Source: Ignavibacteriota bacterium
GTDB taxonomy: Bacteria; Bacteroidota; Ignavibacteria; UBA10030; UBA6906
Length of the DNA: 64,000 nt
Assembly (NCBI GenBank): GCA_963801355.1
Contig: CAWDEM010000008.1
Span: 1,056,001 to 1,120,000 of the forward strand
Direction of reading: 5' to 3'
Part shown: piece by piece, positions 5,688-64,000 of the stretch
How the letters are laid out: every line of letters begins with the position of its first letter
How positions within the stretch are numbered: the first letter of the stretch is position 1
Notes under the pieces: model-generated
What the model saw: the letters and a program-made list of their open reading frames with translations, nothing else
Database searches by the model: none
Told to the model about the DNA's origin: nothing
Made by a program: the position numbers and the translations under genes

Positions 5688-5818
5688 GGCGATTCCTGTC
5701 TGGCGATTCCTGTCGATTCCTGATTCGCGATTCCAGCCGACATTACGGCCGGTATCGGCCTTTTGGGGGTTATCCCGTGAGCAAGATGCTGTTTGGGGTG
5801 ATCCCGTGATCAAGATGC
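5688..5818. repeat. Intergenic short GATTCC repeats plus a degenerate 2x ~29 bp direct repeat
   Basis: ggcgattcctgtc-tggcgattcctgtc-gattcctgattc...; tttgggggttatcccgtgagcaagatgc versus tttggggtgatcccgtgatcaagatgc. Confidence 0.7.
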
Positions 5819-5846
5819 AGAAAGAGTATGATCCCCACTCGGAACG

Positions 5847-5878
5847 GAGAGGACCCGGCAGCAATCCCGGGCCCTCTG
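5847..5878 (-). terminator. Hairpin downstream of the T9SS gene, probable terminator
   Basis: agaggacccgg-cagcaatc-ccgggccctct inverted repeat about 40 bp after the stop. Confidence 0.5.
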
Positions 5879-5916
5879 GCCACCAGTTCATGTCCTCTTG
5901 AGAAGTGGGTATAGAG

Positions 5917-7218
5917 CTATTTCAACAAAGTCATTTTCTTCGTGAGCACTGTGCTCCCCGCCTGAATCCTGTAGAAGTAGGTACCGGCAGCCACACCATT
6001 CGCATCCCATGTGGCAACATAACGGCCGGCAGTCATGTTGTCGTCCACCAGCGTCGCGATCTCCTGGCCCAGATTGTTGTACACCTTCAGTGTCACCCGG
6101 CTGTCTGCGGGGACTGCATAGGAGATGTTGGTTGTGGGGTTGAAGGGGTTTGGATAGTTCTGGTCGAGAGCGAACTCGGTAGGAGCTCCTGTTAAAGCGT
6201 TGAGTTCGGCGAGCTCGTCATCCGTAGCTCCGTCCTTCCAGAAGGCAAATATCGGACCGGCAGGCGGCGGACCGTTCTTCATGTTCTTCCCGGACGTTAC
6301 ACAGGGTTAGCATGAGCTGTCTGCGGTAGACTGGTTCCACCTGCTTGATCGCAAGCCTGATGAATCCTGCAATCTTCTCGGGATCGAAGTTGGGAGATTT
6401 CTGCGGTATTCCATGCCAAGACATCATGAAGGAACATTTGGGCAAGGCCTATCGTCTGGGTCGAGAGTTGCTCGATAAGCTGCGGCTCTGGCAAGAGGAA
6501 GAGCTGACCGTACTGCATCATCTGCTGTCTGTATGATTTTTCAGCTTTAACAAACTCTCTTGGTTTGGGACAACCCTGGATGGAGCCAAAGACTCCGGCC
6601 AATACCAGAGGCACTTCATCGCTACGATTGTTCGCCGCAAGGTACAGGCGCGCTCCAGCCAACGGGTCCACACATCGTCTAACAAGTATATCTACTGCTG
6701 TCTCTATTAGAGTATGTCCCACGACCGGCAGAAAAGCAGCGCCAGCCTCGGGGCCTAGGAGATCGTAGACGTAGCCTTCAATCATCCGGATTCCCAACCA
6801 ATGTGGCTCCCTGATCAATAACCCAACCTGTAGGATCAGGTTGATCGCCCGGAATCGGATAGATTCCGTGGGCATACGAATCGGCGCCCCTCAGACTTGC
6901 ATCGATGTTGTTGTGCGTGAAGGCCCCGTAGAACGCAGCTTTCGCGTTGCGGGTTGACGCCGATTGCCAGAGCCCCCAGTAGACATCTGCGTTCGTGTGG
7001 AACAAGTAGTCTGCCGTGAATCCGGCCTCAGTGAAATTGTAGCCGAATAGGTCCGGCAGAACTGCACCGTACATCTCGTTCTGGTTCATTGGACCGAGCA
7101 TCACGCCAAGGTTGTTGGCGAAGTACACGTGAGTCAACGACCCCCATCCAAACCCAGCCGACACCCCTACGATAAGGAGGAGACTCACGCAAGCAAGTTT
7201 GAAGACCGAAGTGCGCAT
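5917..7218 (-). CDS. Secreted Zn-dependent phospholipase C/S1-P1-like protein with T9SS type-A CTD, split by three +1 frameshifts
   Basis: Signal peptide then WGSLTH; pieces lie in ORFs 6778-7218, 6297-6875, 6218-6445 and 5917-6282 (QNYPNPFNPTT...KKMTLLK). Shifts near 6786, 6413 and 6290. Confidence 0.65.
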
Positions 7219-7541
7219 GATATACCTCCGCTATTGAATGTGTTATGGATACGGTGCCCCAGCAGGATCTTAATTGCCCCCCGCGGGGCGTCTTGAAATC
7301 AGTTGTGCTCAACGTGACGCTTGAGTGTCGAGCACCTGTGTGTGCATCCAATATCCGAAATGACCCGGTGCTCCGTGTCATCGAAATGTCAAAGTTCGGT
7401 TCAGAATTTGTAACCGATAGATTCTGCCACAGCGATGGTCAGCCAGCGGGTCGTCTTGGTGAGCTCTACGACGAAGAAATCAGAACAGGGTCCCCTGCGG
7501 TGGCCCGATGGCCGATAAAGCCATCGAACTCTCCGGTGTCG

Positions 7542-7573
7542 CAAATATAACGTGCAACCCCGAGAGAGTCAAA
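7542..7573 (-). promoter_or_regulatory. Bacteroidota-type housekeeping sigma promoter (-33 TTTG / -7 TAnnTTTG)
   Basis: Minus strand reads TTTG-actctctcggggttgcacgt (20 nt)-TATATTTG. Confidence 0.65.
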
Positions 7574-7776
7574 TTGCTTTTTCGGAAAATCATCCACCGA
7601 AGGCTTAGGCCCTGGTAGATTCCGAGCTGCATGTTACCTATGTGTCTATCGCGAACAGGAGAAGCCGCAAGCTCGAAGGTATTCGACTGTTTCCCTTTAG
7701 TCTAGTCGGGAAACGCGGAAGGAACCTACAATAAACAATCGCGTGAATCATCTCTTTATAAGATCCGGGAAGCGGG

Positions 7777-8226
7777 CTACCAGATGGGTTTCCGGTACTC
7801 CCAGGGAGGAATGGGGTCATCCATCGACCAGAGGCCCCTTTTTGCTTTCCGGGCGGCTTCTTCGAGGCTCTTGAGTTTCTTGTCCCGCGGGGCGTACTTC
7901 TGAAACCACCAGGCTAGGCCTTCTTCCACGAGCAATTGGTTGAGGTTCCGTCCGTCAGCAAGGAATACTATACCCAGTGTCCGTCCGTACACATCCTTGC
8001 CCTTGGGTTGCACCTTCACATCTGTGCGGTAGCACAGAACTGAAACGCGCTTTCTCGCCGTCCTGTAGTAGTCCTGCCCACGCTCCGGAGAGTCAATGCC
8101 GAAGAATCTCACCCGAACCGGCCGTGAATCGACCAGTATGGTAATCGTGTCTCCATCTTCGATGCTGATGACACGACCGTTGATGTCCCCGGACACGAGG
8201 AAAAGGATCAAGAGTAATGTAGTCAT
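7777..8226 (-). CDS. Thermonuclease (SNase) family protein
   Basis: DGDTI, RFFGIDSPE, DVYGRTLG, LVEEGLAW and AKRGLW motifs. Confidence 0.9.
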   Translation of the reverse strand: MTTLLLILFLVSGDINGRVISIEDGDTITILVDSRPVRVRFFGIDSPERGQDYYRTARKRVSVLCYRTDVKVQPKGKDVYGRTLGIVFLADGRNLNQLLVEEGLAWWFQKYAPRDKKLKSLEEAARKAKRGLWSMDDPIPPWEYRKPIW

Positions 8227-8297
8227 GTCTCTTCAGGATATGGACCGCCAACAGCCCACCGGCCGCCCGGCCGTTCACGAAGGCTTATTCCTGCCGG

Positions 8298-8708
8298 CTA
8301 CAGCCACGTACGGCTTCTGTAGGCCTCATAGTCGGCGCCGAAAGCAGCAGCCAGCACGGCTTCCTCCCGCCGGACTTGCGCCACCTGCACTATGACAAGT
8401 ATCCCCCAGACCACCAGGAGAATGGGCATGCCAAGGAGTACGATTATTGCAGCGAGGAATAGATCAAGGAACAGATACATAGGATGCTGGATCTTTGCAT
8501 ATAAACCGGTCGTGACGAGGGCTTTCGCTTCAGGCGCTACTGAGAACGACTTCCCAAGGTGACTTCGGCTGATGATCATCAGGGCGAATGACGGCAGGCC
8601 AACAAGAATCCCGGCTACAAGTCGTTGATTTTCGCCCATTAAGGTGGCCGCATAGGCGAGAGCGGCAACAACTGCGGCCCCCGCGAGTCGGATTACTGTT
8701 CTGTCCAC
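8298..8708 (-). CDS. Isoprenylcysteine carboxylmethyltransferase/PEMT-family membrane protein
   Basis: LVTTGLYAKIQHPMY and REEAVLAAAFGADYEAY motifs. Confidence 0.85.
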   Translation of the reverse strand: MDRTVIRLAGAAVVAALAYAATLMGENQRLVAGILVGLPSFALMIISRSHLGKSFSVAPEAKALVTTGLYAKIQHPMYLFLDLFLAAIIVLLGMPILLVVWGILVIVQVAQVRREEAVLAAAFGADYEAYRSRTWL

Positions 8709-8885
8709 GGCTCGTTCTTGCCTCCTCTGTCATTCCGCATTGGTGGCGCGTGCTCTCTGTTTATTATCACTTCGCTACTGACTTGGGAACAGAATCAAAG
8801 CGATATTCGTTCTTGTGAAGTATGAGAAGAGACGGAAAAAGGCTCTCCAACTCACCCTTATCCCCACATCTACTGGAGGTACTCC

Positions 8886-60115: not shown

Positions 60116-62344
60116 CTACTTGAGCAATAGGAGCTTGCGCGATTGGACGAAGTCTCCTGCTCCGCCTTTGGAGTCACCCCCTTGGGCGGAATCCAAAGGG
60201 CGGACCTGCATGCGATAGAAGTACACGCCGCTGGGCAGACGTGAGCCGTCGAACTTGACTTCGTGGTAGCCTGCATCCTCTTCCCCATTGTGCAGAAGGG
60301 CGACCAGCTCGCCAAGGGTGTTGAAGACTGTCAGGGTCACCTGAGAACGAGCGGGCAGACCGTAGCGGATTGTCGTCGAAGGGTTGAAGGGGTTGGGGTA
60401 GTTCTGTTGAAGCAAGAATTCCTGCGGCAACACGCTTGCCACGGGGTCAATCGAGGTAATCATTTCCGACAAGGGGCGTCGCCACACGCCGCTACCAGAA
60501 GTTCCGGCATAAAGGTTCGTCCCACTGACAACGAGAGACCAGACACTCGTGATTGTCAGACCTGAGCTAGCATCAGTCCAACTTGTGCCGTTGTTGGTGG
60601 TGAGAAAGATGCCGCCGGAAGTCCCAGCGAGCAGATTCGTCCCACTGACGACGAGAGACCAGACATTCGTGTTCGTCAGACCCGCGTTGACCGCAGTCCA
60701 ACTTGTCCCGTTGTTGGTGGTAAGAAAAGCGCCTTCAAAAGTTCCAGCGAAGCGTCTCGTCCCACTGACCGCAAGAGACCGGACACTCTTATTCGACAGA
60801 CCTGAGTTAACCGCAGTCCAACCTGTGCCGTTGTCGGTGCTAAGAAAGACGCCGCCGCCAGAAGTCCCGGCAAAGAGACTCTTCCCGTCGACGACAAGAG
60901 ACTGAACATTCTTGTCTGTCAGACCTGAGTCGACAGCCGTCCAACTTGTGCCGTTGTTGGTTGAAAGAAAGACCCCGCCGCCATATGTTCCGGCTAAGAG
61001 ATTCGTGTCGGAGACGGCAAGAGCACGGACTTGCGTGTTCGTCAAGCCGGTACTTGCGAGGGTCCAGCTTGTGCCGCTGTTGGTGGTAAGAAAGACGCCA
61101 CCGCTATCATTCTGCGCAAGAAGATACGTTCCGTTGCCAACAAGAGACGTGACCCTCGTGTTTGTCACCCCTTCGTTCAACGCAATCCAGTTTGTCCCGT
61201 CATCGGTGGAAAGAAAGCCACCTCCGCCGTAATAGAAGAGAGAGCCTGTCCCCGCAAAGAGCTTTTCCCCGCCGACCGCAAGAGACCAGACTGACGTGTT
61301 GGCCAGGCCAGAGTTGAGCGAACTCCAGCTTGTGCCGCTGTCGGTGGAAAGGAATACACCCCCCCCGGCGCCAATGCCCGCAAAGAGCTTCGCTCCGCCC
61401 ATCCCGTCCGAGGCGGGGCCAACAGCAAGGCTCCGGACCCACGCATTCTTCGGTAGGCCCGAGCTGGCCGCAGTCCAGTTCTTGCCATTGTCCGTTGTGC
61501 GAAAGACGGCATCGCCAGAACCCAAACTGTATGTCCCCGCAAAGACATTCGTACCGAAGACAGCAAGAGTGCCAACCGAACAATTCGTCAAGCCGGCTTG
61601 AGTCCAGCTTGTCCCGTTGTTCGTGGAAAGAAGGACGCCGCCAGAAGTCCCAGCAAAGAGATTCGTCCCACTTGCAGCAAGAGACCCGATATTCGTGTTC
61701 GTGAGACCTGCGTTGACCGCTGTCCAGTTCCCGCCGTTGTTCGTGGAAAGAAAGACACCGCCGTTAGTCCCCGCGAAAAGACTTGTCCCGATGACGGCAA
61801 GAGAGTAGACGAGTGTGTCCGTCAGACCTGAGCTAGCCAACGTCCAGGTCGTACCATTGTCCGTTGAACGATAGACCCCACCTGGGGTCTCACCACCATA
61901 TCACGTGTGCCCTGGGGTACCCGCAAAGAGATACGTGCCACTCACAGCAAAAGACCTGACAAACGCGCTCGTTAAACCTGTAGCAATCCAGCTTTGCCCG
62001 TTATCGGTGGAACGAAAGACTCCACCGCAAAGAGTCCCTGCAAAGAGATACGTCCCGGTTATCCCATTGGAGGCCGGAAAGGCCGCAAGAGAGGAGACCA
62101 CCATATCCGCAAGCCCGGAGTTGACCGCACTCCAGCTTGCTCCATCGTTCGTGGTACGAAAGACACCTCCGGCATCATGAATGCCAAAAAGGGGAAAGCC
62201 TGTTCCCACAAACACATCCGTGCCACTCACAACAATGGCGCCAACCTCACCACCACCGGGACCGCACGTTTGGACCCATTGGGCTGACACACGGGGGCAC
62301 AGCAGAACGATGACGAGTCCGAGGCAAATACATTGAGTGTTCAT
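60116..62344 (-). CDS. BNR/VPS10-like repeat beta-propeller with T9SS CTD, interrupted by one in-frame TGA at 61901-61903
   Basis: ORFs 61901-62365 and 60116-61840 are in the same frame: LFAGTPGHT*YGGETPGGVYRSTDNGTTW; many FAGT.GGVFLSTNNGTSW repeats. Confidence 0.85.
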
Positions 62345-62809
62345 CCAATCCTCCATATAGCGCAAACGTTGTCGGAGATTTCTGACATGAAGTCGGACTC
62401 GTTGTGCCCTCGGGTAGCAGGTTATCGCAGAAACACTCGGCGGCTCGCCGACTCCTGCGCCAGGCCGAAGAAAGCAGGTCCCTCCGATGGATGAAATCCT
62501 TCGGAAATCCGTATGAGAGATGGGAGTGTAAGAGCAGAGGCAAGAATCGGACTTGCGCCCTCAGGTCTCATACGGCAACCGCCCCGTCCACCGCATAGAC
62601 CTATGTGCTATGGCGCAAACCTAAGAAAGGGCATGATCAATGTCAATGGACATCCCTTATGGGGATTCTACTTGAAAACACAAAGCCCCAAGAGATCATG
62701 AGGCTTTCGTCATGCCTATCGTTGCAGAGGGTCTATTGGATGAACATGAGCTTCTTGGTCTCCACGTACGATCCGGCGTGAAGACGAAAGTTTGCTCTCT
62801 TGAAACATT

Positions 62810-62827
62810 TATCGTATTATTACGATA
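62810..62827. promoter_or_regulatory. 7-4-7 palindromic operator upstream of hgcA (ArsR/SmtB-type candidate)
   Basis: TATCGTA-ttat-TACGATA in an AT-rich patch between TTGAAA (62800) and TATAAG (62826). Confidence 0.55.
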
Positions 62828-62840
62828 TAAGATTAAGAAT

Positions 62841-64000
62841 ATGGGAGTCTGCTCTGTGCCAATCCAACCACACATCCGACGGTGTTGTGAGATCGTGAAC
62901 TCACCTGCAATCAAACACGAAGAGTCAGCGGTGAAGCCTTCTGAAACCACTGCCATCGACCCCAGTTCCTGCGGGTGTGCGAAGTCCAAATCAGCACCAA
63001 GACATCCGACCGTGGGAGCCATTGAAACTTCCGAAAAATCGATTCCGCAGATGTCGACGCGCCTTCAAGCAACCGATCATCTCGGCGCAGTGATGGTGCG
63101 TTTGGGTATCCGAAGGGACCGCTACCGGATCGAGCCAGGATTATATGCCGTCGGAACACCCGATGAACGCTCCGATGTGCTTGTGACCGCCAACTACAAA
63201 CTGACCGTCGATTCGGTGCGAAAGAACCTCACGGGTCTAAACGTTTGGCTTCTGGTGCTTGACACAAAAGGAATCAACGTTTGGTGTGCCGCAGGGAAAG
63301 GCACTTTCGGCACCGACGAGCTTGTTAACCGCATCAAACTGACTTCGCTTGAGACAGTTGTCAGGCACAGGCGCCTCATTCTTCCCCAACTCGGTGCTGT
63401 GGGTGTCGCGGCACATCTCGTGAAGCAGCGTTCAGGATTCACTGTGCTCTACGGGCCGGTGCGGGCGACAGACATACCCGCATATATTCAGGCTTCATAT
63501 AAGGCGACAAAGGAAATGCGCCTGGTGAACTTTGGGTTGGTAGATCGCGCGAAACTTATCCCCAATGATTTCGTGTACGGCATGCGCTATCTGCTCGCGG
63601 CAGCGGGTGTGCTCCTCCTTCTCTCGGGCATCACCAAAGAAGGCTTCTCAATCCGGCAGGCACTCGAACACAGCGATTCTACGATTCGCAATCTGGGTCT
63701 GGGGTATTGCGCCGGGATAATCTTCACACCCCTGTTTCTTCCCCTCATACCCACCCGTCCGTTTGCGCTGAAGGGTGGGCTCATCGGTGTGTTCCTCTCA
63801 GCCCTGCTCCTGTTTGTCCTCCGGCCGGTGACTAATCCCGGAGAAACAATCGCCTGGGCCTTGATGATAACGAGTGTTTCATCATTCATGGCAATGAATT
63901 TCACGGGATCTTCGACATACACATCGTTGTCGGGCGTGAAGAGAGAGATGAAGGTCGCAGTTCCCATTCAACTATCTTCAGCCGTGCTTGCCGCAATTCT
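62841..64000 (+). CDS. hgcA: Mercury methylation corrinoid protein HgcA (3' end outside the window; start uncertain: 62841, 62895 or 62931)
   Basis: Missing from the ORF track. Manual translation: ...RYRIEPGLYAVG.PD..SDVLVTANYKLT...WLLVLDTKGINVWCAAGKGTFGT.EL...LILPQLGAVGV...YGPVRA.DIP..., then TM helices and MNFTGSSTYTSLSGVKREM. Confidence 0.95.
   Translation, partial: MGVCSVPIQPHIRRCCEIVNSPAIKHEESAVKPSETTAIDPSSCGCAKSKSAPRHPTVGAIETSEKSIPQMSTRLQATDHLGAVMVRLGIRRDRYRIEPGLYAVGTPDERSDVLVTANYKLTVDSVRKNLTGLNVWLLVLDTKGINVWCAAGKGTFGTDELVNRIKLTSLETVVRHRRLILPQLGAVGVAAHLVKQRSGFTVLYGPVRATDIPAYIQASYKATKEMRLVNFGLVDRAKLIPNDFVYGMRYLLAAAGVLLLLSGITKEGFSIRQALEHSDSTIRNLGLGYCAGIIFTPLFLPLIPTRPFALKGGLIGVFLSALLLFVLRPVTNPGETIAWALMITSVSSFMAMNFTGSSTYTSLSGVKREMKVAVPIQLSSAVLAAI

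Follow-up and report, generated by a model that had tools for sequence, protein, structure and literature searches.

The window analysed here (the whole 64,000-nt stretch C8:1056001-1120000 of the host genome, labelled G000) ends within hgcA, a gene of mercury methylation, which is encoded on the forward strand and followed by hgcB just past the window end. A perfect palindrome of the type found before arsR genes precedes it. That this is an intact, canonical hgcA-hgcB pair we regard as almost certain; an account that joins a genuine hgcAB pair, an Ignavibacteria-like host and control through an ArsR-type operator is very probable as a whole. The features concerned are listed below in window positions, those beyond 64000 being window-equivalent.

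62792-62820, forward strand: inferred promoter, with the -35 box TTGCTC at 62792-62797, a 17-nt spacer and the -10 box TATTAT at 62815-62820 in the centre of the dyad

62810-62827, no strand assigned: 18-nt dyad TATCGTATTATTACGATA with the core ATCGT-N6-ACGAT (16 nt), an ArsR operator inferred by comparison

62841-64000 and 25 nt past the window (stop codon 64023-64025), forward strand: hgcA coding sequence (394 aa), from NF040863 and the lists of open reading frames (ORFs)

62841-63041, forward strand: N-terminal extension of HgcA (residues 1-67), predicted to be disordered, preceding the core of the HMM match, which starts at residue 68

63009-63521, forward strand: alpha/beta corrinoid-binding domain (about residues 57-227), from AlphaFold2, PF03599, PDB sequence and Foldseek matches

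63270-63311, forward strand: cap-helix motif GINVWCAAGKGTFG, from the sequence, with the codon of Cys149, the predicted cobalt thiolate ligand, at 63285-63287

63537-64000, forward strand: transmembrane (TM) domain, from AlphaFold2 and Foldseek, the last helix crossing the window end

64034-64333, forward strand, outside the window (L001 2535-2834): hgcB (99 aa), from NF040864

The hgcA frame is open from 62712, directly after a stop codon, to the window end and has an ATG at 62841. ORF lists include a frame of this kind, running off the window end, only when open ends are allowed. Its product matches the NCBIfam equivalog model NF040863 (HgcA_corrinoid) with 417.5 bits (E 3.5e-125, cut-off 275) over model positions 1-324 of 325, so the frame, which the earlier note had read as an hgcA at the window edge, is not a chance one; the models for the HgcAB-like fusion and for CFeSP (corrinoid iron-sulfur protein) stay under their own cut-offs. 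The gene caller placed the start at 62712 (P0001, 437 aa). We favour 62841 because the promoter and operator (62792-62827) would otherwise fall inside the coding frame and because the N-terminus MGVC... aligns with the MGC... N-termini of relatives.

The consensus of the HgcA cap helix is written N(V/I)WCA(A/G)GK. The motif had been claimed at about 63270-63311 and is encoded exactly there, NVWCAAGK occupying 63276-63299 with Cys149 inside it. W148, C149, A151, G152 and K153 are invariant in an alignment of 39 sequences. The strictly conserved cap-helix cysteine corresponds to Cys93 in ND132 (Pseudodesulfovibrio mercurii / Desulfovibrio desulfuricans), to which passages of PMC7305189 and PMC11588087 assign the role of cobalt ligand. 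The C-terminal tail NFTGSSTYTSLSGVKREM is also encoded as expected in the hgcA frame, and the TM region claimed together with it corresponds to five helices (residues 233-262, 278-298, 308-326, 333-352, and 363-393) in an AlphaFold2 model (mean pLDDT 81.4) for which 39 relatives were used. In the same model Cys149 is borne by a short helix at 147-153. Foldseek returned the deposited HgcAB model 9a0b_A as the best match (E 2.3e-21, 45% identity, 322 aligned columns), followed by the corrinoid domains of CFeSP large subunits (E about 1e-6), and matches of the PDB sequence search were confined to the C-terminal domain of these subunits (E 1.5e-13, HgcA residues about 65-210).

hgcB starts 8 nt past the hgcA stop codon, the two being separate genes, and was found when the downstream sequence was read as the earlier note had proposed. 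Its product scores 120.3 bits with NF040864 (cut-off 99) and contains two CX2CX2CX3CP motifs (Cys21/24/27/31 and Cys51/54/57/61), Cys74 within GVGCAAG, and a tail with Cys90, Cys92, and Cys98. A CC or CxC pair is present within the last 25 residues of 92 out of 97 HgcB-like ORFs (at least 80 bits). According to passages on the mutagenesis of ND132, Cys93 of HgcA as well as Cys73 and Cys94/95 of HgcB matter (PMC11588087, PMC7305189). The features by which HgcA is recognised, namely the equivalog score, the cap-helix cysteine, five TM helices (in the model) and an adjoining separate hgcB, are thus all found here.

The N-terminal extension of HgcA carries five cysteines (C4, C15, C16, C45, and C47). 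It appears to be flexible, with pLDDT below 50 at residues 1-40 and 42-52 and the N-terminus (1-52) disordered. Extensions of at least 30 aa are present in 86 of the 119 nearest cluster representatives, 70 of these 86 having at least three cysteines there, usually in the pattern MGCSDQKCGCGNS...CGCQ; in the 33 representatives without the extension, two cysteines are never found in that region. Some of the closest relatives (P0002, P0006, G017) lack the extension. By analogy with the HgcB tail as described in passages of PMC7305189, it may serve as a flexible thiol-rich arm capturing Hg(II) or As(III). A full-text literature search, which did not extend to the supplements of hgcAB papers, returned nothing on a Cys-rich HgcA N-terminus, which weakly suggests that the tail has not been described so far. 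As a simple and testable structural variant it constitutes a modest addition.

The distribution of hgcA was assessed in 277 species-representative genomes of the host's order, host included. HgcA above the cut-off was found in 20 of them, and G012 additionally carries an HgcA split over two contig ends. Host excluded, matches were found in 0 of 4 genomes of the same genus and in 3 of 67 genomes of its own family f1 (one split, one truncated). Family f8 contributes 15 of 86 genomes, mostly of one genus, f5 contributes 1 of 44 and f9 1 of 3; there were none in f7 (0 of 55) and f2 (0 of 11). When the 16-kb locus was searched in the four congeners and G017 for an empty hgcAB site, nothing collinear was found: the search gave scattered repeats of the BNR type or of the type IX secretion system (T9SS), a gamma-glutamyltranspeptidase gene (G002, 81%) and hgcA in G017.

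In a collection of 5.8 billion clusters, the two proteins closest to the window HgcA share 76% and 65% identity with it; among species-representative genomes not belonging to the host's own group, Bacteroidales metagenome-assembled genomes (MAGs) come first with 57-59%. A maximum likelihood HgcA tree of 110 rows was built, fragmentary or aberrant rows L006, L007, L010, and L088 being left out. The window HgcA falls into a clade of 29 rows (SH-aLRT support 98) made up of f1 and f8 HgcA and unnamed metagenome proteins. This clade is nested in one of 63 rows (support 99), which comprises only Bacteroidota-labelled, host-order and unlabelled database proteins. Both the HMM search and the phylogeny, put forward as checks in the earlier note, therefore agree with its gene call: 417.5 bits against a cut-off of 275 in the one, grouping with host-order and Bacteroidota-labelled HgcA in the other. 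The larger clade also agrees with the joint clustering of Bacteroidetes and Ignavibacteria HgcAB, which are monophyletic according to passages of a 2020 paper (McDaniel et al., PMC7438021); the same source reports that Ignavibacteria express hgcA in a fen. As hgcAB in Bacteroidetes and Ignavibacteria is known as a kind (PMC7438021, in part), the novelty implied by the earlier note was overstated.

The dyad TATCGTATTATTACGATA is perfect, both 7-nt arms being complementary throughout, and is separated from the hgcA ATG by 13 nt. No other exact copy exists in the 4.8 Mb of the genome; the sole one-mismatch copy (C8:185204) has its end 8 nt upstream of the arsR ATG. The ATCGT-N6-ACGAT core has six exact copies in the genome versus 3.1 expected from base composition, and only the arsR and hgcA copies combine an all-A/T centre with a place before a start codon. 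The arsR copy in the host genome differs from the hgcA dyad solely in the central bases, and in five f8 clusters the arsR operator has exactly the sequence of the hgcA dyad. The same dyad precedes hgcA in the same-family genomes G017 and G210. If the dyad is taken as the anchor, the regions upstream of hgcA in the host, G017 and G210 align with 19 arsR promoters in a common layout: a -35 box similar to TTGACA is followed by 13 nt, in which GAAAC is frequent, and then by ATCG and a hexamer of the -10 type within the dyad.

A third dyad at C4:541233 (one mismatch) was rejected as a target, as it precedes merely a 17-codon frame between other genes. Since Rfam models, at a permissive threshold, matched no RNA family in the 4-kb locus, no riboswitch is seen in the 475-nt spacer upstream of hgcA. 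Palindromes, e.g., at -131 and at -381 to -387, also occur before f8-type hgcA genes. In a Bacteroidales MAG (L040 724), the near-identical dyad ATCGTATATTTGCGAT is located just before an ArsR gene which itself precedes hgcA, so this operator type may extend beyond the host's order.

The gene of the ArsR/SmtB regulator (C8:185230-185547; NF033788, 68 bits, cut-off 55) is directly followed by arsM, coding for arsenite methyltransferase (NF008823, 339.4 bits, cut-off 263). The two genes are located 933 kb from hgcAB. Orthologues of this ArsR are present in 21 of 68 family genomes, including the host and 4/4 hgcA-less congeners, and all 21 keep the four-Cys motif CxC...CxC (Cys41/43/80/82). In 20 of the 21, the arsR ATG is preceded at 16-62 nt by the dyad, with no more than one mismatch. 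The exception is G210: there the dyad is followed by a C-terminally truncated hgcA (322 aa) that lacks an hgcB partner, and then come arsR, a second dyad, arsC, and acr3. This G210 locus (L149, G210:C29:52700-65500, 5746-8821; L107 1240-3775) looks like a decaying hgcA inside an ars operon. A second arsenic cluster of the host, G000:C8:1269344-1276410, is devoid of the dyad; it contains acr3 and arsC, and a paralogue of the first ArsR (41% identity) is encoded at a distance of 5 kb.

By these comparisons, the host has a regulator with a conserved, putatively autoregulatory operator and what appears to be the same operator in promoter position before hgcA, and we consider it likely that hgcAB is under ArsR control. 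As the proposed -10 box lies inside the ArsR-type operator, hgcAB is probably kept off by the repressor and induced by As(III) or a similar cue: the -10 box would be blocked by dyad-bound ArsR until the effector, probably As(III), frees the dyad.

The pair itself would work as described for the family. HgcA would be a membrane-anchored corrinoid protein, the cobalt of which is reduced to Co(I) by HgcB, a ferredoxin with two [4Fe-4S] clusters. S-adenosylmethionine (SAM) would then methylate Co(I) to methyl-Co(III), the lower thiolate ligand being Cys149, and the methyl group would pass to Hg(II), handled by HgcB Cys74 and the C-terminal cysteines, yielding methylmercury. Methylation of the HgcA corrinoid by SAM and subsequent transfer of the methyl group to Hg(II) are described in passages of PMC11588087. 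Provided that hgcAB is expressed and corrinoid is supplied, Hg methylation by this host is quite probable. CobS and CbiA/CobB gave no match in the 100%-complete genome, and there was no cobalamin riboswitch among the 150 of 384 candidates scored. MetH, split into two adjacent genes (C4:1103242-1106732; 725 and 607 bits), indicates that the host uses cobalamin. The host looks like a corrinoid auxotroph with two or more corrinoid enzymes, and the corrinoid is probably imported.

Several points weigh against the account given so far. A generic sigma-70 consensus scan did not list the proposed hgcA promoter, because its -35 box, TTGCTC, is weak. The operator was assigned by comparative footprinting, and the dyad may be the binding site of a different factor. 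In the HgcB tail, a C-x-C pair and a lone cysteine take the place of the vicinal Cys94/Cys95 of ND132. The HgcA tree was obtained by a quick method with SH-aLRT support only and with four rows dropped. Finally, we know of no Bacteroidota or Ignavibacteria carrier of hgcAB for which Hg methylation in culture is on record.

The weak -35 box would also be in line with the dyad being an inert relic of an ancestral arsR promoter and hgcAB being expressed constitutively at a low level, as has long been assumed. Judging by the relatives, hgcAB formerly lay within ars clusters, which makes a leftover promoter fragment an expected finding, and G017 appears to hold debris of an arsR start after the dyad. 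In this genome (L147, G017:C112), a stub reading ATG-GGG-CGA-TAG is located 8 nt after the dyad (5794) and before hgcA. The three codons of the stub resemble the MG... start of arsR, as though a deletion had removed arsR from between its promoter and hgcA. However, a neutral relic ought to decay, whereas the hgcA dyad is perfect and the same as the arsR operator of five f8 clusters, the host arsR copy departs from it in central bases only, and the register with the -35 and -10 boxes is exact in three genomes of different genera. We therefore regard an inert relic as a possible but rather unlikely explanation and prefer a working ArsR operator.

The gene neighbourhoods bear on what hgcAB may have been selected for. 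Among the hgcA loci of 19 relatives, inspected with 6-kb flanks on the hgcA strand, 17 contain at least one ars gene. arsC is located immediately upstream of hgcA in 13 loci and acr3 after hgcB in 12; an arsR orthologue lies upstream in 12, with the dyad beside each, and arsM is common. The two ars-free loci are those of G123, where the upstream side is cut by a contig end, and G017, where the dyad directly precedes hgcA as in the host. An ArsR homologue (E <=1e-21) was found upstream and on the same strand in 16 of 33 Bacteroidota-labelled loci. The host locus would be a detached version of the arsR-arsM-...-arsC-hgcA-hgcB-acr3 clusters of most of its relatives. In f8 clusters (L138 7605-8925 and the same position elsewhere), a nitroreductase-like protein of 295 aa is encoded between arsM and arsC together with a 153-aa GNAT acetyltransferase, which ends in the Cys-rich tail SCCCSSAVC, both family labels having been judged by eye.

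That hgcAB may be flanked by acr3, arsC, arsM and arsR is already in print (passages of PMC7438021 and PMC11984097), and ArsR control of hgcAB was demonstrated in ND132 (Gionfriddo et al., 10.1101/2022.10.17.512643, in part). Neither an operator sequence nor control in trans appears in the passages of these three sources, supplements not being covered.

One could go further and suppose that HgcAB is selected for handling of metalloids such as arsenic, mercury methylation being a side reaction; this seems doubtful. In 12-13 of the 19 loci of relatives, hgcAB is flanked by arsC and acr3, which would fit, as would the ArsR operator shared here and the CxC-rich N-terminal tail of HgcA, the host ArsM having a Cys-rich N-terminal stretch as well. 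In addition, ND132 devoid of hgcAB is reported to be more sensitive to As(V) in a passage of 10.1101/2022.10.17.512643. Against this stand the retention of all residues known to be necessary for Hg methylation, the fact that co-regulation does not prove a shared substrate, and the presence of a separate arsR-arsC-acr3 cluster without hgcAB in the same genome. A fuller version of the idea can be offered only as speculation of similarly low probability: throughout the order, hgcAB would be a working member of an As(III)-responsive ars regulon, detached copies would have kept or acquired the arsR promoter-operator, and the tail would capture soft metal(loid)s, with selection acting on arsenic detoxification and methylmercury arising as a by-product. 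If true, it would explain the persistence of hgcAB where mercury is scarce. The more limited proposal, a methylation gene pair under ArsR control, is the one we retain.

The host genome comprises 4.8 Mb in 8 contigs (100% completeness, 0.14% contamination). Its RpoB is 66% identical to that of a KSB1 MAG, 62% to those of a Bacteroidales MAG and a 'Bacteroidota bacterium' MAG, 58% to that of a Zixibacteria MAG, and 52% to that of a Cloacimonadota MAG; with identities to named MAGs of 52-66%, the host is not a member of Bacteroidia. The 120 listed nearest RpoB clusters are 86-96% identical, and of the eight that carry an organism name, seven are labelled Bacteroidota/Bacteroidetes and one Ignavibacteriae. 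The NCBI entry 'HgcA [Ignavibacteriales bacterium]' is identical, in the columns kept for the tree, to the HgcA of a host-order genome. Taking the names of the RpoB relatives together with this entry, 'Ignavibacteria/Bacteroidota-like' is a fair label for what appears to be an uncultured non-Bacteroidia Bacteroidota. The earlier note had placed the host in a Fibrobacteres-Chlorobi-Bacteroidetes (FCB) lineage outside the classical methylator guilds, which is borne out by the RpoB relatives and by the T9SS sorting domains (PF18962) at the ends of both flanking minus-strand genes.

A chimeric contig or a mis-binned fragment, which would make hgcA foreign to this genome, is very improbable. The absence of hgcA from all four other species of the genus would be in line with it, as would its GC3 of 0.592, long ORFs having a higher mean (0.668). 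This GC3 is only about 1.4 standard deviations off the mean, however, and hgcA sits 1.12 Mb into a 3.03-Mb contig with ordinary local GC; the deep mid-contig position and the low contamination make a chimera unlikely. Moreover, the T9SS domain family of this genome (more than 50 relatives at the DNA level) is found on both sides, the hgcA promoter agrees with that of arsR in the same genome and genus, and HgcA groups with HgcA of the same order.

A non-methylating paralogue, either an HgcAB-like fusion or CdhE/AcsC, is just as remote: Pfam assigns to HgcA a single family, the parent family PF03599 (CdhD, residues 96-214), and several database sources label relatives 'acetyl-CoA synthase subunit gamma', yet the HgcA model scores 417.5 bits where the fusion and CFeSP models remain at 199.8 (285) and 75.6 (306), hgcB is separate, the TM domain and the cap-helix cysteine are present and CFeSP chains cover residues about 65-210 only. 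The fusion model NF043039 (cut-off 285) was rejected with 199.8 bits for HgcA and 52.3 for HgcB, the two ORFs being split by a stop codon and 8 nt. The model for the CFeSP large subunit AcsC/CdhE (NF003195, cut-off 306) was rejected likewise, its 75.6 bits coming from model positions 322-447 only. The HgcA model gave no second match in the genome, hence no CFeSP is present there. The findings named in the earlier note as speaking against it, namely a missing hgcB, a fused or CdhE-like paralogue or a chimeric contig, thus do not apply to this locus.

Some other features of the surroundings deserve mention. A 273-nt direct repeat, 95% identical, brackets hgcAB (window 60134-60406 and G000:C8:1120444-1120716; L002 4134-4406 and 8444-8716) and encodes the T9SS sorting-domain ends of both flanking minus-strand genes. 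Other copies of this domain in the genome, of which there are more than 50, are at most about 79-88% identical, the bracketing pair being the closest by far. This suggests local duplication or gene conversion, and the pair could be a recombination substrate for hgcAB deletion. On the minus strand, the ORFs 61901-62365 (154 aa, signal peptide) and 60116-61840 (574 aa, BNR/sortilin-repeat T9SS) share a frame and are parted by one in-frame TGA at 61901-61903 (...AGTPGHT, stop, YGGETPGG...). Possible explanations for this TGA are disruption of the gene, an error in sequencing, or a codon that is recoded or read through. A pair of neighbouring radical SAM genes, one of which has a SPASM domain, lies beyond the window (L002 12334-15085; G000:C8:1124334-1127085), downstream of a gamma-glutamyltranspeptidase gene, and may form a peptide-maturation cassette.

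With this locus, the number of candidate methylmercury producers grows by one; since its FCB lineage, fermentative and particle-degrading, is known already to contain and express hgcAB, the interest of this is modest by itself. An operator-level tie to an unlinked ArsR is likewise a modest, testable addition: a 16-nt operator common to arsR-arsM and the unlinked hgcAB would make the arsenic-mercury link, so far reported from ND132 genetics and from MAG gene neighbourhoods, predictable from sequence. hgcA promoters could be scanned for the local ArsR operator, revealing arsenic-switched methylators even where no regulator gene is nearby, and surveys scoring only 'arsR next to hgcA' would miss cases such as this locus.

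Compared with known systems, HgcA shares with the CFeSP large subunit (PDB 4djd, 2h9a, 2ycl) the Rossmann-like corrinoid-binding domain with its cap helix but has neither the N-terminal [4Fe-4S] part nor the TIM barrel, carrying a membrane domain and the cap-helix cysteine instead. The HgcAB-like fusion NF043039 consists of homologous HgcA-like and ferredoxin parts, which are unfused here and score under its cut-off. hgcAB of Bacteroidetes and Ignavibacteria MAGs (McDaniel et al., 2020, PMC7438021, in the passages concerned; Hg-MATE-type catalogues) belongs to the same clade with support 99, and NCBI already labels members of the cluster 'HgcA [Ignavibacteriales bacterium]' and 'HgcA [Bacteroidota bacterium]'. 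Unlike the MAG loci described in those passages of PMC7438021, the one studied here has no ars gene within 6 kb, the operator alone remaining.

The experimental reference, ND132, likewise has two adjoining genes, the NVWCAAGK cap helix and five TM helices, and the HgcB of the host resembles that of ND132 in its two CX2CX2CX3CP motifs, in the equivalent of Cys73 (Cys74) and in the presence of C-terminal cysteines. The host differs from ND132 in the 67-aa Cys-rich extension of HgcA, the C-x-C...C tail of HgcB and its FCB affiliation. It also differs in the location of the ArsR-type regulator, which is encoded 933 kb off and not directly upstream of hgcAB and co-transcribed with it. ArsR2 of ND132, as far as the passages of its description go, belongs to the same ArsR/SmtB family, and its Cys47/49/86/88 have the 39-residue spacing seen in Cys41/43/80/82 here. 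Unlike ArsR2, the regulator of the host heads an arsR-arsM operon, has an extra C-terminal CC, occurs in 4/4 hgcA-less congeners and would act on hgcAB in trans.

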